This document shows positions 7,775 to 59,990 of a DNA stretch of 64,000 bases, one piece after another (the stretch's first letter is position 1; each line of letters starts with the position of its first letter). The stretch lies in the NCBI RefSeq assembly GCF_004010195.1, contig NC_057719.1:42369820-42433819 (forward strand), in the 5' to 3' direction. The DNA comes from Chiloscyllium plagiosum. Its lineage: Eukaryota. The position numbers were made by a program, and so were the translations under genes. The notes below the pieces were generated by a model, which was not told the origin of the DNA, ran no database searches, and was given only the letters and a program-made list of their open reading frames with translations.

Positions 7775-9270
7775 AAGAGTCAGATGTACAGCATGGAAAC
7801 AGGCCCTTCGGTCCAACCCGTCCATGCCAACCAGATATCCCAACCCAATCTAGTCCCAGCTGCCAGCACCCAGCCCATATTCCTCCAAATGCTTCCTATT
7901 CAAATACCCATCTAAATGCCTTTTAAATGTTGCAATTGTACCAGCCTCCACCACTTCCTCCTGCAGTTCATTCCATACACGTACCACCCTCTGTGTGAAA
8001 AGGTTGCCCCTTAGGTCTCTCACCCTAAACCTATGCCCTCCAGTTCTGGACACCCTGACGCCAGGGAAAAGACTTTGCCTATTTATCCTATCCATGCCCC
8101 TCATAATTTTATAAACCTTGTTAAGGTCACCCCTCAGCCTCCGACTCTCCAGGGGAAACAGCCCCAACTTGTTCAGCCTCTCCCTATAGCTCAAATCCTC
8201 CAACCCTGGCAACATCCTTGTAAATCTTTTCTGAACCCTTTCAAGTTTCACAACATCTTTCTGATAGGAAGGAGACCAGAATTGCACACAATATTCCAAC
8301 AGTGGCCTAACCAATGTCCTGTACAGCCACAAAATGACCTCCTAAACCATGTACTCAATACTCTGACCAATAAACAAAAGCATACCAAACGCCTTCTTCA
8401 CTATCCTATCTACCTTTGACTCCACTTTCAAGGAGCTATGAACCTGCATTCCAAGGTCTCTTTGTTCAGCAACACTCCCTAGGACCTTACCATTAAGTGT
8501 ACAAGTCTTGCTAAGATTTGCTTTCCCAAAAATGTAGCACCTCACATTTATCTGAATTAAACTCCATCTGCCACTTCTCAGCCCATTGGTCCATTTGATC
8601 AAGATCCTTTGTAATCTGAGGTAACCTCCTTCGCTGTCCAATACACCTCCAATTTTGGTGTCATCTGCAAACCTACTAACTATATCTCTTTTGCTCGCAT
8701 CCAAATCATTTATCTCAATGGCAAAACGTAGAGGACCCAGCACCGATCCTCATGGCACTCCACAGGTCACAGACCTGCAGTCTGAAAAACAACCCTCCAC
8801 CACCATCCTCTGTCTTCTATCTTTGAGCCAGTTCTGTATCCAAATGGCTAGTTCTCCCTGTATTCCATGAGATCTAACCTTGCTAACCAGTCTACCATGG
8901 GGAACCTTGTCGAATGCCTTACTGAAGTCCATATAGATCACATCTACCGCTCTGCCCTCATCAATCCTCTTTGTTACTTCTTCAAAAAACTCAGTCAAGT
9001 TTGAGACATGAGTTTCTATGCACAAAGCCATGTTGACTATCCCTAATCAGTCCTTGCCTTTCCAAATACATGTACATCCTGTCCCTCAGGATTCCCTCCA
9101 AGAGCTTGCTCACCACTGATGTCAGGCTCACTGGTCTATAGTTCCTTGGTTTGTCCATACCATCCTTCATAAACAGTGGCACTATTTTAGCCAACCTCCA
9201 GTCTTCCGGCACCTCACCTGTGACTATCCATGATACAAATATCTCAGCAAGAGGTCCAGCAATCACTTCT
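7775..9270 (-). mobile_element. CR1 (HER1-like) LINE, 5'-truncated, nested in an older + strand CR1
   Basis: RT motifs NYRPVSLTS, YMDFSKAFDKVPH, FADDTK and the 3' tail. The older CR1 is visible at about 7440-7775 and 9275-9830. Confidence 0.92.
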
Positions 9271-13410: not shown

Positions 13411-14375
13411 TCCACTAGATCACTCAAATATAAGAAACCTGCAAGGAAGCAGGGTAAGCAGGACGGCCTGCTAGTAAGACTGAGACTACTCTGTTTCAAG
13501 ACCTCCCTTCCTAGCTTACTCCTGGCAAATGTACAATCTCTGGAGAACAAGATGAAAGAACCCAGATCATGGCTCAGCTTCCAGATGGCGTCGAAACAGA
13601 CTATATACAAGAGGTGGAAGATCTGGAAAAATGGTGCACCGAGAACAACCTAGCTCTCAATGCCAGCAAAACCAAGGAACTCATTATTAACTTTCGACGG
13701 GATGTTACTCATGCCCCCTCCCCACACACACACATTAACAGCACAGAGGTGGAACGAGCAGCAAGTGTCATGAGTGGTCGTTCACAACAAGCTTTCTTGG
13801 ACTCATGTGGATGCACTGGTTACAAAGGCCCAATGTCTCTTCTGCCTCAGACAGCTAAGGAAATTTGGCATGAGTGCGAATACCCTAGCCAACTTTTATG
13901 GGTGTGCCATCAAGAGCATTCTGTCTGGATGTATCACTACCTGGTTTGGCAACTGGACCATTCAAGATTGGAGTCGGTTACAGAGAGTGGTGAAATCAGC
14001 CTGTACAATCACAAAGGCCAGTCTCCCATCCATTGAGTCCATCTACCAGGCTCGCTGTCAAGGAAAGGCCGCCAGCATTCTCAAAGATCCAACCCACCCT
14101 GGCAATGTTTGTCTACAACCTCTGTCATCGAGTAGAAGGTACAGAAGCCTGAACATGTGCACCAGAGTTTCATAACAGTTTTTACCCTACTGTTGTTAAA
14201 ATGCTGACTGGACTCACAAACGTTTAACATTTAACCTGTGTTTTTGTTTTTGCCACTGTTTACCTATTATTTACTTATCAATGCTACTTAACTCTGTGAC
14301 CCACTTGTATTCCTCACAAGACAAAGCTTTATACTATGCCTCAGCACAAATAACAACAACTTCAATTCAATTCAA
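13410..14375 (+). mobile_element. Rex-Babar-type LINE with a large internal deletion
   Basis: N-terminal LPSLLLANVQSLENK joined to the RT C-terminus WCTENNLALNASKTKELII and FYGCAIKSILSGCITTWFG; (TTCAA)n tail. Confidence 0.8.
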
Positions 14376-17103: not shown

Positions 17104-17247
17104 GATCTGATAAATGGTGCGCTGCATGGATCTGGTTAGTGCCTCAAAGTTCACTGTATGTATTAGCAATTCATGTATCGGGATAGAAAGCAAAATACAT
17201 CAAGAACATAAAGATTGATGTCAGTATAGATGGAAGTCGTAGGGTAC

Positions 17248-17450
17248 GGTGCTGGAAAAGCATAGACGGTCAGGCAGCATCCGAGGAACAGGAGAATCGA
17301 CGTTTAAGCATAAGCCCTTCATCAGGAATGATGAAAGGTTTATTCCTGAAATGTTGATTCTCCTGGTCCTTGGATGCTGCCTGACCGACTGTGCCTTTCC
17401 AGCACCACACTCTTCAACTCTGATCTCCAACATCTGCAGTCCTCAGTTTT
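17248..17450. repeat. Penelope-derived inverted repeat (arms about 80 bp) with two decayed hammerhead cores back to back
   Basis: gtgctggaaaagca...cccttcatca / tgatgaaagg...cctttccagcac. Confidence 0.75.
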
Positions 17451-20594: not shown

Positions 20595-21209
20595 CTGTAA
20601 TGTTTATTAAACAAATCAGATTTTATTGCATTATATTTTGCAGTTTCGTAGCATCTCTTATTCTGTTTACTGCAGGATTTTCCCTTTTAAACTGTGTAAT
20701 CATTCAAAAAGGTTTCTTTATGCATCTTGTAGTTAATTTCAAAGTGACTTCAATGTTGGTTTAATGAAATTCAAAGCACTGGAGAATATCTCCTACTGCA
20801 ATCCAAACTATAGTTTACAATATTTTATAAAAACAAAAATTGCTGGAGAAAAACAGCAAAGTCTGGAAGCATCTGTGGAGAGAAAGCAGAATTGACATTT
20901 CACATTCAGTGACAATTCTTCAGTTTCTCCAGCAATTTCTGTTTTTGTTTCAGATTTTCAACTTCCGCAGTTCTTTGTTTTATTTTACAATATTTAACCT
21001 GGAGATCAGTCATTTAACTTCTAGTGTGAATCTATAGATCTGGACCTGATTCAGAATGATTTTGCTTTTAAAAGCTACTATTACCACAACCAATACTCTT
21101 CCCCTTCTACCCATTGAGATTGTCAAAGAAGAACACTTGTGCATAGGAAAATGGGGCAGCTAGTTATGTCCTATTTCCCATCAGCATTGCATTTTGGAAG
21201 TCAGAGAAG

Positions 21210-23495
21210 TAGATAGAGTCATAGAAATGCACAGCAAGGAAATAGACTCTTCAGTCCAACCCGTCCATGCCAACCAGATATCCCAACCCAATCTAGTCCC
21301 ACCTGCCAGCATCCAGCCCATATCTCTCCAAACCCTTCCTATTCATATACCCATCCAAATGCCTCTTAAATGGTGCAATTGTACCAGCCTCCACGACTTC
21401 CTCTGGCAGCTCATTTCATATACGTACCACCCCCTGCGTGAAAAAGTTGCCCCTTATATCTCTTTCATATCTTTCCCCTCTCACCCTAAACCTATGTCCT
21501 CTAGTTCTGGACTCCCCGACCCCAGGGAAAAGACTTTGCCTATTTACTCTATCCATGTCCCTCATAATTTTGTAAACCTCTATAAGGTCACCCCTCAACC
21601 TCCGACTCTCCAGGGAAAACAGCCTCAGCCTGTTCAGCCTCTCCCTATAGCTCAAATNNNNNNNNNNNNNNNNNNNNNNNNNNNNNNNNNNNNNNNNNNN
21701 NNNNNNNNNNNNNNNNNNNNNNNNNNNNNNNNNNNNNNNNNNNNNNNNNNNNNNNNNNNNNNNNNNNNNNNNNNNNNNNNNNNNNNNNNNNNNNNNNNNN
21801 NNNNNNNNNNNNNNNNNNNNNNNNNNNNNNNNNNNNNNNNNNNNNNNNNNNNNNNNNNNNNNNNNNNNNNNNNNNNNNNNNNNNNNNNNNNNNNNNNNNN
21901 NNNNNNNNNNNNNNNNNNNNNNNNNNNNNNNNNNNNNNNNNNNNNNNNNNNNNNNNNNNNNNNNNNNNNNNNNNNNNNNNNNNNNNNNNNNNNNNNNNNN
22001 NNNNNNNNNNNNNNNNNNNNNNNNNNNNNNNNNNNNNNNNNNNNNNNNNNNNNNNNNNNNNNNNNNNNNNNNNNNNNNNNNNNNNNNNNNNNNNNNNNNN
22101 NNNNNNNNNNNNNNNNNNNNNNNNNNNNNNNNNNNNNNNNNNNNNNNNNNNNNNNNNNNNNNNNNNNNNNNNNNNNNNNNNNNNNNNNNNNNNNNNNNNN
22201 NNNNNNNNNNNNNNNNNNNNNNNNNNNNNNNNNNNNNNNNNNNNNNNNNNNNNNNNNNNNNNNNNNNNNNNNNNNNNNNNNNNNNNNNNNNNNNNNNNNN
22301 NNNNNNNNNNNNNNNNNNNNNNNNNNNNNNNNNNNNNNNNNNNNNNNNNNNNNNNNNNNNNNNNNNNNNNNNNNNNNNNNNNNNNNNNNNNNNNNNNNNN
22401 NNNNNNNNNNNNNNNNNNNNNNNNNNNNNNNNNNNNNNNNNNNNNNNNNNNNNNNNNNNNNNNNNNNNNNNNNNNNNNNNNNNNNNNNNNNNNNNNNNNN
22501 NNNNNNNNNNNNNNNNNNNNNNNNNNNNNNNNNNNNNNNNNNNNNNNNNNNNNNNNNNNNNNNNNNNNNNNNNNNNNNNNNNNNNNNNNNNNNNNNNNNN
22601 NNNNNNNNNNNNNNNNNNNNNNNNNNNNNNNNNNNNNNNNNNNNNNTTCATTACTTCTTCAAAAAACTCAATCAAGTTTGTGAAACATGATTTCCCACGC
22701 ACAAAGTCATGTTGACTATCCCTAATCAGTCCTTGCCTTTCCAAGTACATGTACATCCTGTTCCTCAGGATTCCCTCCAACAACTTGCCCACCACTGATG
22801 TCTGGCTCATTGGTCTATAGTTCCCTGGCTTGTCCTTACCACCCTTCTTAAACAATGACACCACGTTAGCCAACCTCCAGTCTTCCGGCACCTCACCTGT
22901 GACTACCGATGATACAAATATCTCAGCAAGAGGCCCAGCAATCACTTCTCTAGCTTTCCATAGAGTTCTAGGGTACACCTCATCAGGTCCTGGGGATTTA
23001 TCCACCTTTACCTGTTTCAAGACATCCAGCACTTCCTCCTCTGTAACATGGACATTTTCCAAGATGTCACCATCTATTTCCCTACAGTCTATATCTTCCA
23101 TATCCTTTTCGACCATAAACACTGATGCAAAATACTCATTTAGTATTTCTCCCATTTTCTGCAGCTCCACACAAAGGCTGCCTTGCTGATCTTTCAGGGT
23201 CCTATTCTCTCCCTAGTTACCCTTTTGTCCTTAATGCATTTGTAAAAACCCTTTGGATTCTCCTTAGCCCTATTTTCCGAAGCTATCTCATGTCTCTTAT
23301 TCGACCTCCTAATTTCCCTCTTAAGTATACTCCTACTCCCTTTATACTCTAAGGATTCACTCGATCTATCCTGTCTATACCTTCCATATTCTTCCATCTT
23401 TTTCTTAATCAAAACCTCAATTTTTTTAGTCATCCAGTATTCCCTATATCTACCAACTTTCCTTTCCCCCTAACAGGAATATACTTTCTCTGGAA
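21210..23495 (-). mobile_element. CR1 LINE spanning the assembly gap
   Basis: ILNEYFASVF, DKSPGPD and NYRP motifs on one side of N 21658-22646; 3' ORF end and tail on the other. Confidence 0.9.
21658..22646. other. Assembly gap (989 N)
   Basis: Run of N. Confidence 1.
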
Positions 23496-25750: not shown

Positions 25751-26994
25751 CTAGGTGGAAAACGACAAAACAAGGTTTTAATGAAGGTGTCATATGAAGC
25801 ACAGCTTCTGTATCTAGCAAAATTACCCATGTTCTTGATTTCTAAATATCAGTCTTTGTTGAATGCCGTCCAACTGAATTATTACAGGTATGTGCTGAAA
25901 TGGTGAGACTGCAGCATTGCAGTTCAACTCTAAATAGGGCTGGGCATAAAAAGGGCTAATTCCAACAAGCGTCTCCTCTGCTCCTCTTGGATATGACCTA
26001 TCAAACCTTGTGCCCTTTGAAGTCTTTTCTGCACAATCCTCTGTATCAGCTTTCATCCATAAAAATTGATTCTATAGAAAATCATAAGACAACGAATGAA
26101 TATATCTTCCTTGCCAGTCTAATAATCCAGGTATGTTAATGTTAGTGCAATTAGAGATGCATATTTCAGCTACACTCGCCAATTAAAAATTATATATATA
26201 GTAAAGGCAAAATGCTGTTGAAGCTGGAAATAGGAAATAAAAACAAAAAGTGCTGGAGAAGCTCAACAGGTCTGGTAGTGTCTGAACAGAAATGAAACTG
26301 GATTTGAAACATTAACTCTATTTCTCTTTCCATAGATGCTGTCAGAACTGTTGACAACCTGTGATCAGTAATATCTTAAGGATTGCAGCTATTCATCAGT
26401 ATTTTTAGTGGTTTATTACTAGCTAATTGTAAATTCACAGAACACAAATGGCAAGATGTGGGAGCAGACATTAAAACAGAAAATGCATACTGAACAAGTC
26501 ACACCTGACATTTATCAAGTGAATGAAGTTTTACCAGAGAAATTCTTCTAAATTGCGTTTTCTCTTCATAACGTCCCACATTAAATTTACTATTTTGTAC
26601 CTAGAATATAGTGCATTAAATTAAAATTTTAAATTAAGACAGATTATAAAAATATAAAAGACACAATGGGCAAAGTTTCACCCATTTCCATCCAAAAGTC
26701 ATGATATTCTGATCATGAAATCAATTAAACATTTCACACAATATTGAGCCCTGACATGAACTAAGTAGTTGTGAGTTCAACTTTATTGCACAAAAGAATA
26801 AAATATCATACCTCAACTGATTAATGCAATTGCTAACCTGCTGCAGGATAACTCTCAATATATTATCAAATACATTTTAGCTTGATTGAAGTGATATAAT
26901 AATCCCATTGTGATGTCGGACAGACTGGCATAAGTTAAAATTAGTGGCAGGAGTAGGGAGCTGTATTTTTACATTTTTTACGTGAGCTGAGAGT

Positions 26995-30714: not shown

Positions 30715-31834
30715 ATTCCCCATGGGACACTAGTTAATAAGGTTATATCTCATGGAATACAGGGAGAACTAGCCATTTGGATACTGGCTCAAAGGTAGAA
30801 GACAGAGGGTGGTGGTGGAGGGCTGTTTTGTCAGGTGGTGGTGGAGGCCTGTGACCAGTGGAGTGCCACAAGGATCGGTGCTGGGTCCACTATATAAATG
30901 ATTTGGATGTGAGCAGAAGAGGTATACTTAGTAAACTGTCAGATGACACCAAAATTGAAGGTGTAGTGGACAGCAAAGAAGGTTATCTCAGATTATAACA
31001 GGATCTTCACCAGATGGGCCAATGGGCTGAGAAGTGGCAGATGGAGTTTCATTTTGATAAATGCGAGGTGCTGCATTTTGGGAAAGCAAATTGTAGCCGG
31101 GCTTATACAGTTAATGGTAAGGTCTTGGGGAGTGTTGCTGAACAAAAAGACCTTGGAGTGCAGGTTCATAGCTCCTTGAAAGTGGAGTCGCAGGTAGATA
31201 GGATAGTGAAGAAAGCAATTGGTATGCTTTCCTTTATTGGTCAGAGTACTGAGTACAGGAGTAGGAAGGTCATGTTTCAGCTGTACAGGACATTGGTTAG
31301 GCCACTGTTGCACTATTGTGTGCAATTCTGGTCTCCTTCATATTGGAAGGATGTTGTGAAACCTGAAAGGGTTCAGAAAAGATTTACAAGGATGTTGCCA
31401 GGGTTGGAGGATTTGCGCTATAGGGAGATGCTGAACAGCCTGGGGCTGTTCTCCCTGGAGTGGAGGCTGAGGGTGACCTTAAAGAGGTTTGTAAAATCAT
31501 GAGGGGCATGGATAGGATAAACAGGCAAAGTCTCTTCCCTGGGGTGGGGGAATCCAGAACTAGAGGGCATTGGTTTAGGATTGGGAGGGGAAGATATTAA
31601 AAAAAAAGACCTAAGGGGCAACTTCTTCATGCAGAGGTTGGCAAATGTATAGAATGAGCTTCCAGAGCAAGTGGTGGAGACTAGTATAATTGCAACATTT
31701 AAAAGGCATCTGGATGGGTATATGAATAGGAAGAGTTTGGAGGGATATGGGCTGGCAGGTGGGACTAGATTAGGTTAGGATATCTCGTTGGCATGGACGA
31801 GTTTCCATGCTGTACATCTCTATGACTCGGACTC
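30715..31834 (+). mobile_element. 5'-truncated CR1 (HER1-like) LINE inserted in the Gmr1 integrase
   Basis: CR1 ORF2 C-terminus (WAEKWQMEF, LYRTLVRPLL.YCVQFWSP). The flanks rejoin to integrase EVRGPLKL|IKEKL. Confidence 0.9.
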
Positions 31835-36214: not shown

Positions 36215-38275
36215 ACTGTCATAGAGATGTACAGCATGGAAACAAACCCTTCAGTCTAACCCATCCATGCCAACCAGATATCCCAACTCAATCTATTCCT
36301 ACCTGCCAGCACCCAGCCCATATCCCTCCAAACCCTTCCTATTCATATACCCATCCAGATGATTTTTAAATGTTACAATTGTATGAGCCGTCACCACTTC
36401 CTCTGGCAGATCATTCCATACATGTACCACCCTCTGTGTGAAAAAGTCGCCCCTTAGGTCTCTTTTATATCTTTTCCCTCTCACCCTAAACCTATGCCCT
36501 CTAGTTCTGGAATGTCCTACACCAGAGAAAAGACTGCTTATTTATCCTATCCATGTCCCTCATGATTTTATAAACCTCTATAAAGGTTACCCCTCAGCCT
36601 CAGACGCTCCAGGGAAAACAGCCTCAGCCTGTTCAGCCTCTCCCTATAGCTCAAATCCTCCAACCCTGGCAACATCCTTGGAAATCTTTTCTGAACCCTT
36701 TCAAGTTTCACAACATCTTTCCAATAGGAAGGAGACCAGAACTGCAGACTATATTCCAACAGTGGCCTAACCAATGTCCTGTACAGCTGCAACATGTCCT
36801 CCCAACTCCTGAATGCAATACCCTGACCAATAAAAGAAAGCTCACCAAATGCTTATTTCACTATCCTATCTACCTGAGTTCACTTTCAAGGAACTATGGA
36901 CCTGCACTCCAAGGTCTCTTTGTTCAGCAACCAGGACTTTCATTAGGTGTATAAGCCCTGCTAAGATCTGCTTTCCCAAAATGACAGATGTAACTCCATC
37001 TGTCACTTCTCAGCCCACTGGCCCATCTTTCAAGATCCCGTTGTAATCTGAGGTAATTTTCTTCGCTGTCCACTACACCTCCAATTTTGGCGTCAACAGC
37101 AAACTTACTAACTGTACCTCTTATGCTTATATCCAAATCATTTATATAAATGGTGAAAAGTGGAGGTCCCAGCATCAATCCTTGTGGCAATCCACTGGTC
37201 ACAAGCCTCTAGTTTGAAAAACAACCCTCCACCACCACCCTCAGTCTTCTACCTTTGAACCAGTTCTGTATCCAAATGTCTAGTTCTCCCTATATTCCGT
37301 GAGATCTAACCTTGCTAACCAGGTCCCATGGGGAACCTTGTCGAATGCCTTACTGAAATCCATATAGATCACATCTACCACTCTGTCCTCATCAATCCTC
37401 TTTGTTACTTCTTCAAAAAACTCAATCAAGTTTGAGAGACAGGATTTCCCACCCACAAAGCCATGTTGACTATCCCTAATCAGTCCTTGCCTTTCCAAAT
37501 ACATGTACATCCTGTCCCTCAGAATTCCCACCAACAACTTGCCCACCAACAACATCAGGCTCAGTGGTTTATAGTTCCCTGGCTTGTCCGTACCACTTTT
37601 CTTAGAAGTGGCACCATGTTCGCCAACCTCCAGTCTTCTGGCACCTCACCTGTGACTATCGATGATACAAATGTCTCAGCAAGAGGCCCAGCAATCACTT
37701 CTCTAGCTTCCGACAGAGTTTTAGGGTACACCTGATCAAGTCCTGGGGATTTATCCACTTTTATGCGTTTCAAGACATCCAGCACCTCCTGACTTCCCTC
37801 TTAAGTATACTCCTACTTCCTTTATACTCTAAGGATTCACTCGATCTATCGTGTCTATACGTGACATATGCTTCCTTCTTTTTCTTAACCAAACTCTTCA
37901 TTTCTTTAGTCATCCAGCATTCCCTGTACCTACCAGCCTTCCCTTTCACCCTGACAGGAAAATACTTTCTCTGGACTCTCATTATCTCATTGCTGGAAGC
38001 TTCCCATTTTCCAGCCATCCCTTTACCTGCAAACATTTGTACCCTATCAGCCTTTGAAGGTTTTGCCTAATACCGTCAAAATTGGCCTTTCTTCAATTTA
38101 GAACTACAAAATTTAGGTCTGGTCTATCCTTTTCCATCACTATTTTAAAACTAACAGAATTATGGTCGCTGGCCCCAAAGTGCTCCCCCACTGACACCTC
38201 AGTTATCTGCCCTGACTTACTTCCCAAAAGTAGGTCAAGTTTTGCACTTTCTCTGGTAGGTACATCCACATACTG
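36215..38275 (-). mobile_element. CR1 LINE, 5'-truncated, internally deleted
   Basis: Frameshifted ORF2 pieces (YMDFSKAFDKVPH, DKSPG) and the 3' tail. Confidence 0.92.
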
Positions 38276-44432: not shown

Positions 44433-44588
44433 ATGATTTGGAGATGCCGGTGTTGGACTGGGGTGTACAAAGTTAAAAATCACACACCAGCAGATTATAG
44501 TCCAACAGGTTTAATTGTCGCTCCGAAAGCTAGTGTGCTTCCAATTAAACCTGTTGGACTATAACCTGGTGTTGTGTGATTTTTAACT
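44433..44588. repeat. Penelope-derived inverted repeat just upstream of the SIVA1 promoter
   Basis: Arms 44471-44517 / 44542-44588; the loop keeps GCTCCGAAAGCTA. Related copy at about 1430-1550. Confidence 0.75.
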
Positions 44589-44629
44589 CTGACCTTAGCA
44601 TCCACAGTAACAATTCACATTGACCCTGC

Positions 44630-45070
44630 AGATAAAGGCACGCGCTGGGACAGAGGGAACACGTGACCTGTGGGCGGAGCTTCATCCTTAGGCCACTCCC
44701 TACCACGTGAGCGGGCGCCGGCCTCCTGATAGGCGCGTGTCCCGGCGGGTCAGAGGTTGCGGTTTGGCGCCTCTCGGTTTGTTTTTTTCTCTCGGTGAAC
44801 GGGATCTGGTGTTCGGTGCCGCCGGTATGACCAAGAGAGCCAGCCCGTTCGGCGACACGGCACCGCTGCAGTGGAAGATCCACGTCACCCAGAAAGAGCT
44901 GAATGAGGGGGTGTTCGGGGAGCAGTACAAGCGGGAGGTGTACGGTGAGTGGCTGCATTTAGAGGCCGCACAGCGCGAGAGCCGGAGGGAGGCCCTGCCT
45001 GCACGGAGCAAGGTCGGGGCAAGTGTCTCGGCATTGACGGTAACTGGCCTTCTGGACAGCGCGGCCCCTT
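44630..45070 (+). promoter_or_regulatory. CpG-island promoter of SIVA1
   Basis: The clearest CpG-dense non-repeat stretch in the window. E-boxes CACGTG at 44660-44665 (CACGTGAC) and 44704-44709; GC box TGGGCGGAGC at 44671-44680; no TATA box seen. Confidence 0.8.
44827..44944 (+). CDS. SIVA1: Apoptosis regulatory protein Siva, exon 1
   Basis: [39 protein letters not shown], 118 nt, donor |gtgagt, inside a CpG island. Resembles the SIVA1 N-terminus (MPKRSCPFADVAPLQLK...). Confidence 0.95.
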
Positions 45071-48055
45071 TCTTACTGACCTGCACCTGAGGCTGTTAGT
45101 AAACTGAGCTCCGTTTCAGGATAAACGCAAATTACTGGCATCTGAAACCAAAAGGAGAGAAAAAAAATCCAGCATTTTCTCTTTTTATCTCCGTTTCAGG
45201 GGGCGGTTGTAACACCTTTTTTTTTAGATCGGCGTCTCTGTTTTTATCAGAATTGGCTTGAGGGAGGAAGGCTCTTTTCGGTGTTTGGTTGAAAGGTTGG
45301 TGGACTTGGGAGTTGTCTACAGGGCAAAAGCGAGTCTGTGGTAACCTAAATTGCAAAGTCCTTGAGCCGTGCACAGCGTTTAATTTCACTGGAGAAAGTG
45401 AAAGAAACCTCCAAAACGATAGGAAATTGTGCTAAGTCTCTAAAACTAAAATGGTAACAAGCTGAAAGGGTGACTTTGCACACGCGAAAGTTGACTTCTG
45501 ATGCTTAAGAGGCTGTTTGGCAGGAATGAAAACTTGGCCTGTTTTAAGTTTTTTGTTTTCCCAGAGACTGCGTACAACGAGTGCAGTGGCTTCATTCGGC
45601 GTGTTTTTCAGTAGTGAGTCACATAGCTTTGTACCAGTTTCCAGGACAGTGATAACTTCCCAATTTGTCTTTAACTGTATTGCTACTAAGCGTTCTTATC
45701 TGATTTGCACTGAGTGGTTGGCATTTTCTTCTTACTGCAAGACCGAGGCCTTGTAATTTGCTTTGAAAATAGTATTTGAGCACAAGTTTTCACTATTAAA
45801 CTTCACGTGATAGATGAGACTTGTGTGGAAATCCAAAACCTCATCTAAGTGATAGCTTACTATAAGTTCTGTCACTGATTTATCACATATGTTTGAATCT
45901 AGGCTTTTCTTCCACTAACAGCAAATTTGTTTTTAGTCAGTTATGAGATGTGGGCGTTGCTGGCTGGACCACCAGTTATTGCCTGTCCCCAGTAGGCCTT
46001 GGTGGTGAGCTGCCTTTTAGCACTGCTGCAGTGCTGTCAGTACAGCCACCATGCTGCTAGGGAGGCAGTTTCAGGATTTTGATCCAGTGCACCTCCAGTT
46101 CTGGGCCTTTTGTGATCAATAACCATGTAATTCACTGGCCTCTTCTAACTATTGTAGAATCTTACAATGTAGTTTCTTTTCTAGATATGGAAAGGTACTG
46201 TATCATGGCTACCTCCTAAGCTTTCCACTTGTTGAGTTCTGGACAATTCTCAAACAATTTTTATAATATTGTGAAAGTGCTCAAATGAAAGGTCTTTTCA
46301 CAAGTTATAAATGGAACTGCTTTAACTGAAGTACCTTTTTTACTTTTTTAAAAAAAAAATCAGGCAATAAAAGTTGAGCACTTGGGCACACACACTGCTG
46401 GCTGAATGTTAGCTTTGCATGCAGTTTCTTCTATAAGGTGCTGGCCAGATTAGACTGTGCAGAATACTAGGTGAGTGGGCTGATTTAATACGAGCCTCTT
46501 GGTCTATTTCCTTGCTTGTAGCCCTATGGCCATGCAAGTTTATTTCTGTCAAGAACCCATGCAACTTTATTTTGAAATTACTCATCTTCTGTTTTAACCA
46601 CCTCTATGGTGCAACCTCCAGGTCACTCTTAATCTTCATGTGCACCCCTTTGAATTGTTACCAAAAACTTTAGGCAGTGAAAAACCTATGGGACACAAAT
46701 TTAAGGGGAACAGTCCTTTTTTTGTCTACTTGATCAAAACCTGTTAGTTTTCTCCATGCCTATAAAATCATCATCCCACCTGGCTCAATTTGTGTTTCTC
46801 CATCTGTCATGCTGAGTCTGACTTATATTCATGAACAGAAGTTGGCCAGTTTGCTGAAATTCACTTCAACTTCTAATTCATAAGCCAATCAAATTAGTCA
46901 ATGGGTTCTATCTTTGACAAATCTATGTAGTTTCTCTTTGATCAACTCAACCTCTAGGTGCCTGATTCCCTGCACCCTAGTATGTCTAGACTGACTTTCC
47001 TAGTTACTAGAAATATCCTTGCATCCTTCCTTGAACAAGCACATCACACTTTTACTTTGCAGTCTTCTAAAATATCCCTTTTATATCTGCAAGGTCATGG
47101 CATACCTTTCTACTATATTCACCTTTATTTGTCTTAGCACTGGAAACATCATGCCGGCAACTTACCCCTCCTGTCTCCAAATCAATTTTTATTTCCTATC
47201 CTTTTCTTTGAACTGATTTCTTTTTTAACGTTTTCTCCATATTCTAGCCTTGTCTAGGGCTTATTAGTACAGATTGTTCTTTGTTCTGAATGCAGGTGGT
47301 TCTCCAATAGCATGTGCTCTTACAACATGAATTGATTGTAACACAATTACTGAATTTAGACCGATATTTGTAGAACACTAAATTCCTTACATGACATGAT
47401 TCTGGCCCTGTTAGTTTTAAATGGTGCTGATATTTCACAATTCTTTTATAAAACAAGATTGTATGGGAACTGAATTAGTGTTAGAACTACCTGTAGACCC
47501 AACCCTGTCTCCTACTTGCATGGTAGAAGTTTTGGGTCCTTTAGTTCCTGCTATTTTCTCATCTCTTTGCTTTCCTTTTCTCTTCCCTGTGAACTTGTAT
47601 TTGGTTTGGTTCTAGTTTGAAGGATCCACCTGATGTACATCATGCACCACTTTTATTAATCATTCTCAATTTTCCTCTTCCTTCCATATACTCACTTCTT
47701 CTTGGTCTGTTCCTTTCCAACATGCAACTATTTCCTCTTGGTATTTCTAATACTACACCTTTTGTACATCATAAACTTTTACTTGTGTCCATCAATTGTC
47801 CAATGCAGTTAAACTCACCCACCAGTGTGGCGATATAACTTGTCTCAAGTGCAGTCTGCAGGTTGACTAATATTGAAAGACAGATGGAGAGGGAGTAACA
47901 TGCAGAACAATTAGCACAGGGAGAAGAATAATGTGCCCTAATATGCATTCATTTTTAGAATTTTATTGGCAAGATTAGTAATTTTGCAGATTTGTTTACA
48001 TTTTTAATCACTTTGAATTGACTCCCAATTTTATTTTTAATGTTTTTATTTGCAG

Positions 48056-48286
48056 AAAAAACTAAATGTTTGCTGTTTAACGGTGCACAAGCCTTTATGG
48101 GATGTATGTGGGCTGGCAGCTCAGAAGAGAATTGTACACTGGTTCCTATGACCAAGCCTGTTGAAGATAACTGCTTTAAAAAAACTGATGTTTGTAATGG
48201 ATGTGAAAGACGAGAGTTACTCCATGGGCAAACATTTCTAGGACACAATGGGCAACTTATAAAGGGTTCACGGTCTTCATATAAAT
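48056..48286 (+). CDS. SIVA1: SIVA1 exon 2
   Basis: tttgcag|, 231 nt, phase 1-1, |gtaagc. EKTKCLLFNGAQAFMGCMW...LLHGQTFLGHNGQLIKG... Confidence 0.93.
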
Positions 48287-48663
48287 GTAAGCTTACTCCA
48301 ATTAATCCATATTTATTTTATGCTGTGATGTTTGCATTCTGATGGGTTCCTGGCTATTACTAGAGCATTTTAAAGTTCTAATCTGAACACTGCAGTCTGC
48401 AACAATGTTCATAGATATCCAAGTGAGATCCTAACAATAGCTGCCTACAAGATTTTATTAAAGTGTTCAGATTTATGCCAGTTCCCCTTTTTTTTGCAAG
48501 TTTTGAATCCTTTGAGATATGAAATCACTCCTCTTTAGCAATTACAAGTTATGGGTCAGTTGTGTGAAATGGGTTATTGCTTGTGTTCTATCTATGCTTG
48601 TGAAGCTTTTTTCTGGATGTAGGTTTGCTCGCTGAGGTAGAAGGTTTGTTTTCATTCAGAGGC

Positions 48664-48703
48664 TCACTGAAGATGTTACCTACTATGGTGACGAAACATC
48701 TGA
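48664..48703 (+). ncRNA. Minimal type-I hammerhead ribozyme motif (Penelope-type)
   Basis: UCA-CUGAAGA-U-GUUACC-uacuau-GGUGAC-GAAAC-AUC^UGA: intact core boxes, 6-bp stem II, 3-bp stem I. Confidence 0.65.
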
Positions 48704-49208
48704 AAACAAACCACCTAGCTCAGCGAGCAAACCTACATCAGAACCCCATCGTGAGCTACAAATCTTAAAACTGACTAGCTTTGTTTTCTGTTTTTTTGTG
48801 ATAATTGATATTACTAAAACTGAAGTTCTATAAGCAATTGTTGACAATAATAACACTTCATTTTAACATGTCAGTGCATATTGAGCTGTTCTTTGAAGTG
48901 AATAGAAAAGCTATTCTTGTACAGCAGGGCTTTAAATTTTAAATATTGGCATAAATGTGATTTTTCTTTTTGGGTTGGGGGGGAATTGCAGGGTGTCACC
49001 AAGAGGCTGTTTGACTCTGGTTTCTGTTCATGACAAAGCTAGCCACTTGATGGAATATGACATTAGAATAATTGCTGATGTTTTCTCAGACGAGCACAGC
49101 TGAATTACCAACTTCTCACTAAGTGAGACACGACTTCCCTGACAACTGTAGTCGTGTTTACTGGTTTTGGATTTCATTAAAAACAAGTTCCATGATCTGT
49201 CAGTAAGT

Positions 49209-49575
49209 TTTGATGCAGCAAAGTTAAGAATTTTAGTAAATTTTTGGTCTTTGCTTTTACTTGCAATTGTTGTTTATTGTAGTTTGGTTTTTAACAAGCT
49301 CACTTTTTTGTTTTTATTCCATAGCATCAGTCAAGCCAGCAACCATGAACTGTTTTATCTGTTTAAAGCCAGCAAATTTCAAGGAGCCATGCTTTGATGC
49401 AGCAAAGTTAAGAATTTTAGTAAATTTTTGGTCTTCGCTTTTACTTGCAATTGTTGTTTATTGTAGTTTGGTTTTTAACAAGCTCACTTTTGTTTTTATT
49501 CCATAGCATCAGTCAAGCCAGCAACCATGAACTGTTTTATCTGTTTAAAGCCAGCAAATTTCAAGGAGCCATGCT
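49209..49575. repeat. Tandem duplication of about 183 bp across the SIVA1 intron 2 / exon 3 boundary
   Basis: 49209-49392 and 49393-49574 differ by one substitution and a 2-nt T-run indel. Confidence 0.95.
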
Positions 49576-49663
49576 CACAGTGTGACCACTTAATATGCCA
49601 ACATTGCAGCAAAGTTTGTGATCATTGTGCAAGGATTTGCTGTTCACTCTGCTCGTTCAATGA
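49507..49663 (+). CDS. SIVA1: SIVA1 exon 3 (Cys-rich zinc-binding region)
   Basis: ccatag|, 157 nt, |gtgagt. SSVKPATMNCFICLKPANFKEPCSQCDHLICQHCSKVCDHCARICCSLCSFN, with repeated CxxC. Confidence 0.92.
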
Positions 49664-51070: not shown

Positions 51071-51119
51071 TTATAATGAAGTTCGTGATCGGGTTTTCTG
51101 TTATGGCTGCTTCCCTTGA
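51071..51119 (+). CDS. SIVA1: SIVA1 exon 4 (last coding exon)
   Basis: cctttttcag|; phase-2 join gives DYNEVRDRVFCYGCFP*. Total CDS 555 nt (184 aa). AATAAA at 51250-51255. Confidence 0.9.
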
Positions 51120-59941: not shown

Positions 59942-59990
59942 AAATGGTATGCTGTAGCCTACATGTGATGTAGGCTACAGCATACCATTT
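59942..59990. repeat. Perfect 23-bp inverted repeat with a 3-nt loop
   Basis: aaatggtatgctgtagcctacat-gtg-atgtaggctacagcataccattt. Confidence 0.95.

Follow-up and report, generated by a model that had tools for sequence, protein, structure and literature searches.

A hammerhead-bearing insertion in intron 2 of SIVA1 in the shark Chiloscyllium plagiosum: a probable Penelope-like stub with a ribozyme predicted to be inactive

Introduction

Minimal hammerhead ribozymes were described in metazoan Penelope-like elements, where stem II comprises 6-8 bp and stem I 2-5 bp (Cervera and de la Pena 2014, PMC4209133). Single minimal motifs were inactive in vitro and dimers cleaved weakly; the excerpt of that paper used here names no shark among its organisms. 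A lizard minimal hammerhead required its protein to cleave (PMC11167929). According to the same article, both strands of the target are cut and extended by PAc, the Poseidon element of Anolis carolinensis, which has two start sites with a tail between them (Frangieh et al. 2024, PMC11167929). EN+ Penelope-like elements typically leave inverted 5'-truncated copies on insertion, with a tail of 30-40 nt at one end (Arkhipova et al. 2013, PMC3846280; Craig et al. 2021, PMC8557442). A retrozyme, in the definition of a work that sampled one cartilaginous fish, consists of tandem units (10.64898/2026.07.22.740005). All comparisons made below are bounded by the excerpts of these articles.

The window analysed here is a stretch of 64,000 nucleotides of C. 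plagiosum (contig NC_057719.1), in which a preliminary description had pointed out a hammerhead motif enclosed in a hairpin. Our literature search recovered no paper on this locus or on its repeat family, and nothing on a ribozyme in a SIVA1 intron; the supplements of PMC4209133, of PMC11167929 and of the 2026 preprint may list shark families.

The host gene and the position of the insertion

Exons 1 to 3 of the host gene match the Pfam family Siva (PF05458), and exon 2 is 100% identical to Siva of C. plagiosum and C. punctatum and 97% identical to that of Hemiscyllium. With the gene identified by PF05458 and by exon mapping, the host intron extends from 48287 to 49506, and the motif lies in SIVA1 intron 2 in the sense orientation, as had been proposed. 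The coordinates of all features are collected in Table 1.

Table 1. Exons of SIVA1 and components of the insertion in intron 2 (positions in the window).
Feature	Position	Strand	Basis
SIVA1 exon 1	44827-44944	+	exon mapping
SIVA1 exon 2, upstream of the host intron	48056-48286	+	Pfam, protein comparison, exon mapping
Left target-site duplication, 9 nt	48604-48612	+	differs from the right copy by one mismatch; a T run makes the border with the arm unsharp
Inverted left arm, antisense of 48701-48743	48611-48654	-	pairing; loose ends of the family at 48611, 48654 and 48739
22-mer resembling let-7a	48633-48654	+	sequence comparison with let-7a as excerpted from PMC4742387
Microhomology at the inversion junction, 4 nt	48651-48654	+	family contigs align from 48651
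Sense stub (short leader, hammerhead, right arm, tail)	48651-48776	+	family contig alignment
Stem I, 3 bp, UCA/UGA	48664-48666/48701-48703	+	sequence
Hammerhead core CUGAAGA	48667-48673	+	sequence
ATG at the start of stem II	48673-48675	+	25 nt before the predicted cut
Extra U after the core	48674	+	sequence
Stem II, 6 bp including one G-U	48675-48680/48687-48692	+	sequence
GAAA	48693-48696	+	sequence
ACAU, decayed palindrome	48696-48699	+	sequence
CAUC, predicted cut after 48700	48697-48700	+	sequence
Right hairpin arm	48701-48743	+	pairing, family alignment
Tail extension, 33 nt, right arm only	48744-48776	+	loose ends of the family at 48739 and 48766
Right target-site duplication	48777-48785	+	sequence comparison with the left copy
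SIVA1 exon 3, downstream of the host intron	49507-49663	+	Pfam, exon mapping
SIVA1 exon 4	51071-51119	+	exon mapping

Two side observations concern the gene model. A tandem duplication of ~184 bp at 49209-49575 copies the exon-3 acceptor together with 22 codons, and the public C. plagiosum Siva protein, marked "partial", stops exactly at this duplication. Either the assembly is at fault here, or the copied acceptor is real and competes, in which case it would lead to an early stop. In intron 1, the segment 45565-45624 is used as an exon by the public Siva model of C. punctatum (20/20 residues) and is probably a gene-model artefact or an alternative exon.

The hammerhead motif

The minimal type-I hammerhead, as read from the sequence, spans 48664-48703 on the plus strand with its core at 48667-48700. 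All the conserved nucleotides of the core (CUGANGA, GAAA and UH, the latter at 48699-48700) are intact in this copy. Every component named in the preliminary description (CUGAAGA, the 6-bp stem II, GAAAC-AUC and the UCA/UGA stem I) was found in this interval. Two further features of minimal hammerheads, an extra nucleotide (U48674) and the pair G48675-C48692, are also present. A strict descriptor, composed with the SIVA1-intron copy in view, has recovered one match in the window, which is this copy, and none on either strand of 300 random sequences of 63 kb that keep the dinucleotide frequencies. The motif is not a chance occurrence. Rfam returned no hammerhead, neither for the whole window at the gathering threshold nor for 801 bases at E<=10.

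The copy resembles the metazoan minimal hammerheads (PMC4209133) in its core, in the additional nucleotide that separates position 9 from 10.1, in the pair G10.1-C11.1, in a long stem II (6 bp) with a short stem I (3 bp) and no stem III, and in belonging to a repeat with thousands of solo copies per genome. The core, the extra nucleotide and the stem lengths support the earlier assignment to the Penelope type. The copy differs by a broken palindromic pair at 15.2/16.2, and by a stem I captured by the inverted arm. Since the palindrome is lost, we consider it a decayed derivative of the minimal hammerhead and not an intact member.

The state of the palindrome was examined in the family. Position 48698 is a G in 103 of the 183 family RNA reads (56%), and G makes up 25-35% of contig depth in runs X1, X18 and X2, where the alignment favours the letter of the window. 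For the ends clipped at 48654, the X1 consensus has ACGU and that of X18 shows the other product of CpG decay. The palindrome ACGU therefore exists in the family, with heavy CpG decay. These values bear out the decay from ACGU to ACAU that had been suggested, although ACAU may be a common subfamily state and not a decay restricted to the SIVA1-intron copy.

Hammerheads in vertebrate introns are also known from RECK and CTCL, where they are in sense orientation, single-copy and deeply conserved. The SIVA1-intron copy shares with these ultraconserved amniote motifs its location in a vertebrate intron, whereas the RECK/CTCL type has tertiary contacts (PMC6155905) and the present copy has no stem III, a high copy number and no constraint. 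An ultraconserved intronic hammerhead was rejected on these three grounds and on the lack of a hammerhead match in Rfam.

Anatomy of the stub and its repeat family

The hammerhead is enclosed in a hairpin whose arms comprise 21 perfect pairs (48616-48636/48719-48739) and, separated from them by three mismatches, 12 perfect inner pairs (48643-48654/48701-48712); both sets agree with the inverted repeat first reported. Compared with shuffled sequences, the folding of the hairpin gives z = -10.9 and -11.7. Between the target duplications, the element covers about 48612-48776 (165 bases) and is larger than in the earlier account. The left arm extends from the short 3' end of the family to the predicted cut site, and the microhomology at the junction is common to the end of the arm and to the upstream sequence of the family. 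In the right arm, one C is missing after 48738 by comparison with the left arm and with part of the family.

The arms carry a common minority change, in which A at 48639 pairs with T at 48716; the family has a G in 39 of 42 RNA reads at the first position and a C in 129 of 153 at the second. A minority change present in both arms is expected when both are copied from one template. Three other substitutions (48637, 48713 and 48714) unpair the arms.

To describe the family, four of the 24 listed sequencing runs were aligned to 48000-49050 (1,051 bases) at 80% likeness. Run X1 (organism A, 84% of the run) gave 7,026 aligned contigs and run X18 (organism B) 7,859. The summed depth reaches ~300,000-610,000 over 48612-48719, compared with 12-17 for most bins of the flanking intron; this crude measure, which is not a copy number, points to a family of the order of ten thousand copies. 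Contigs and reads reveal two 3' ends of the family, near 48743 and near 48777.

Four features of a Penelope-like stub are found together: a high-copy repeat with a terminal hammerhead, an inverted truncated copy, a one-sided tail and a target duplication. The head-to-head copy, the tail on one end, a target duplication of 8-10 bp and the microhomology junction are shared with EN+ insertions of the inverted pLTR-plus-tail kind (PMC3846280, PMC8557442), from which the SIVA1-intron stub is distinguished by its extreme truncation (165 nt) and by an arm ending exactly at the predicted cut, a detail that the excerpts leave unmentioned. With PAc it shares an ATG that opens stem II some 25-26 nt ahead of the cut, and two 3' ends with the tail between them, and the cutting and extension of both strands reported for PAc would account for two arms (PMC11167929). 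By analogy with Poseidon of Anolis, the ATG at 48673-48675 is likely a relic ORF start. PAc differs in that its RT/GIY-YIG ORF is complete and its ribozyme active with the assistance of protein, whereas the stub holds 31 codons, frameshifted. This ORF stub of 31 residues had no protein match, and no link from the family to a reverse-transcriptase or endonuclease gene was found. A 20-base pattern of the arm had no match in viral contigs; its single metagenome match, in coding-type DNA, was rejected as an unrelated chance match.

From the insertion anatomy we infer a Penelope-like class, and the mode of insertion and the inactivity of the ribozyme are likewise deduced. We are largely confident that the SIVA1-intron element is a 165-base head-to-head stub of a very abundant repeat, likely Penelope-like, with a hammerhead predicted to be inactive. 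In the mechanism that we propose, the enzyme of the element would prime DNA synthesis from both target strands. One copy would start at the short 3' end of the family and give the left arm, and the other would start ~35 bases further out and run through the hammerhead. The two copies would then be joined via the 4-base microhomology and sealed with the 9-base target duplication. CpG decay of the palindrome from ACGU to ACAU and the three unpairing changes in the arms would have come later, and in the pre-mRNA the long hairpin would tie up stem I's 3' strand. We see the hairpin itself as most probably produced in passing when the element inserted.

A short, non-coding, hairpin-shaped element of very high copy could also be a non-autonomous retrozyme or a DNA-transposon-type inverted-repeat miniature element in place of a stub of an autonomous Penelope-like element. 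This is most unlikely, since the element has a single hammerhead and no tandem unit, which retrozymes need (10.64898/2026.07.22.740005), and its arms are unequal, with a tail on one side. Moreover, the consensus of the contigs clipped at 48654 (148 in X1 and 161 in X18, agreement 0.67-0.68) continues into the antisense hammerhead, so the palindrome is not the unit of the family. The candidate of a non-LTR retrozyme was rejected separately, with one copy found in 64 kb and no tandem units.

Predicted inactivity of the ribozyme

In the SIVA1-intron stub, the dimer stem III would depend on a palindrome involving positions 15.2 and 16.2. With the ACAU of this copy, a homodimer would have mismatches at each of its two central pairs, and a further member of the family was not found within the 64 kb. 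Self-pairing of the 9-nt core segment is predicted to yield no stable duplex (+0.2 kcal/mol). According to ViennaRNA, the cleavage-competent fold lies above the ensemble by 9.6 kcal/mol with the arm, by 6.3 without the arm and by 5.2 for the bare core. These energies leave out tertiary contacts and proteins, and the bare core itself obtains only 2e-4, so that the ~3 kcal/mol contributed by the arm is the firmer number. The competition between the inner arm and stem I, put forward earlier, is upheld by the folding prediction, where the arm outcompetes stem I.

An inert motif is the better reading because single motifs are inactive in vitro (PMC4209133), the lizard hammerhead depended on its protein (PMC11167929), the dimer would have mismatched central pairs and the predicted fold sequesters stem I. 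The earlier characterization, a near-intact and attenuated self-cleaving motif in SIVA1 pre-mRNA, is an overstatement. On the basis of these folding models, the hammerhead is most likely an inert fossil.

We give very little credence to the alternative that the motif retains a low rate of cleavage on SIVA1 pre-mRNA, during transcription or with the help of a protein or of a copy in trans. All the conserved core positions are present on the sense strand of a transcribed intron, and runs X21 and X2 both cover exon 2. However, besides the lack of a stem III, the broken dimer pairs and the inactivity of single motifs cited above, the competent fold accounts for 1e-5 to 1e-7 in each of six prefixes of the growing chain. 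The SIVA1-intron copy was barely sampled by the RNA run, in which three of the 272 reads are at least 99% alike to this stretch, and this run has no position where many molecules begin or end. In run X2, a contig restricted to exon 2 has a depth of 256, and intron contigs of depths 16 and 21 flank the motif; one X2 intron contig extends 18 bases across the cut, which falls short of the 31-base rule and carries no weight here.

The left arm and the predicted cut site

The inner end of the left arm, 48654, pairs with 48701, the first base past the predicted cut. This coincidence is probably due to chance. An alternative would be that the copy is inert and that its short arm was templated by an RNA already cut by a hammerhead of the family, which would make the junction a fossil of cleavage in vivo. 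We regard it as unlikely. An exact junction at the cut site is a 1-in-22 to 1-in-70 event per junction, but among the four inverted relics of the window only this one has its arm end at the cut (of the other three, two have antisense arms that stop 9 and 42 nt downstream of the cut and one has an arm spanning the whole core), which amounts to a chance of ~5-17%. Microhomology by itself accounts for the junction, and a 4-nt partner is offered by 22 of the 70 positions tested. The family is not covered more deeply downstream of the cut, nor do read ends pile up, a weak test in a poly(A) library. In the excerpt of PMC11167929, no reads of the lizard RNA data start or end at the cut and cleavage is unnecessary in vitro.

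The let-7-type seed in the left arm

The left arm contains a 22-mer (Table 1) that is identical to let-7a, as excerpted from PMC4742387, at 13 of its first 14 positions and at 14 of 22 overall. The let-7 seed (positions 2-8) is located at 48634-48640, and the 22-mer ends exactly at the top of the stem. The family is already alike to let-7a at 11 of 14 positions, two changes complete the seed, and organism B has at least one of them. Because so few changes are needed, tens of copies per genome would carry the seed by chance, and chance is probably its origin here.

To read the hairpin as a young precursor of microRNA type, with a let-7-seed RNA produced from its 5' arm, is extremely improbable, even though it is intronic, lies on the sense strand and has the match at the top of the stem just described. 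At the two seed-completing positions, at most 4% and 8% of the family depth differ, and a cut measured from the base of the stem gives a different seed. No constraint is apparent in a second species (see below). The hairpin consists of a 43-bp stem with a branched loop of 46 nt, which is outside the usual Drosha geometry. The Rfam let-7 model is absent among nine matches at E<=10 for 801 bases. One of these is a weak minus-strand match to mir-3596, which scores 26.4 bits where the threshold is 96; the microRNA matches, far below threshold, were rejected as reflecting the hairpin alone.

The insertion in a second species

The insert was detected at the same place in organism B, where one contig runs from 48090 to 48643, into the left arm, and another covers 48710-49048. 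No empty site was seen, and both species carry the insertion. The first contig has 15 substitutions, 14 of them before 48580 and one unplaced. In the 64 arm bases read in organism B, we observe 0-1 changes against ~1.8 expected (probability ~0.16-0.45), and the insertion is without sign of constraint in this species.

Other relics in the window

At least seven other hammerhead relics or half-motifs were detected in the window, and the SIVA1-intron copy is the only one of about eight that passes the strict descriptor. Because of these neighbours, no special weight is given to its placement in SIVA1. Three further relics are inverted (17228-17426, 20812-20963 and 44468-44591). The first two are decayed stubs of other families, with candidate target duplications. 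The third, ~240 bases upstream of the SIVA1 start codon, is a stub of another hammerhead family with 50-bp arms and only the 3' half of the core (z = -14.6). Solo decayed relics are present at 1544 (-) and 18213 (-), and a half-motif at 26305 (+). A perfect 23-bp inverted repeat with a 3-base spacer, at 59942-59990, contains no hammerhead. The window also includes broken reverse-transcriptase-like frames that we take to be of LINE type (7850-8749, 13515-14175, 21416-23212, 30999-31502 and 36387-37645), and a gap of 989 N near 21650-22650.

Significance for the repeat family

What role the hammerhead plays in Penelope-like elements is described as unclear (PMC8557442). An enrichment of arm ends at the cut site, if shown, would matter because it bears on this role. 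If junctions of this kind did derive from cut RNAs, it would mean that Penelope-like hammerheads cut in the germ line, that the cut RNAs act as templates and that inverted shark stubs record the rate; tens of thousands of copies would then provide a genome-wide readout of a step unseen in vivo. The best reading of the SIVA1-intron stub is one fossil among very many, of the kind described in 2014 (PMC4209133), and it calls for caution: hammerhead cores that look intact are to be expected in shark introns as background.
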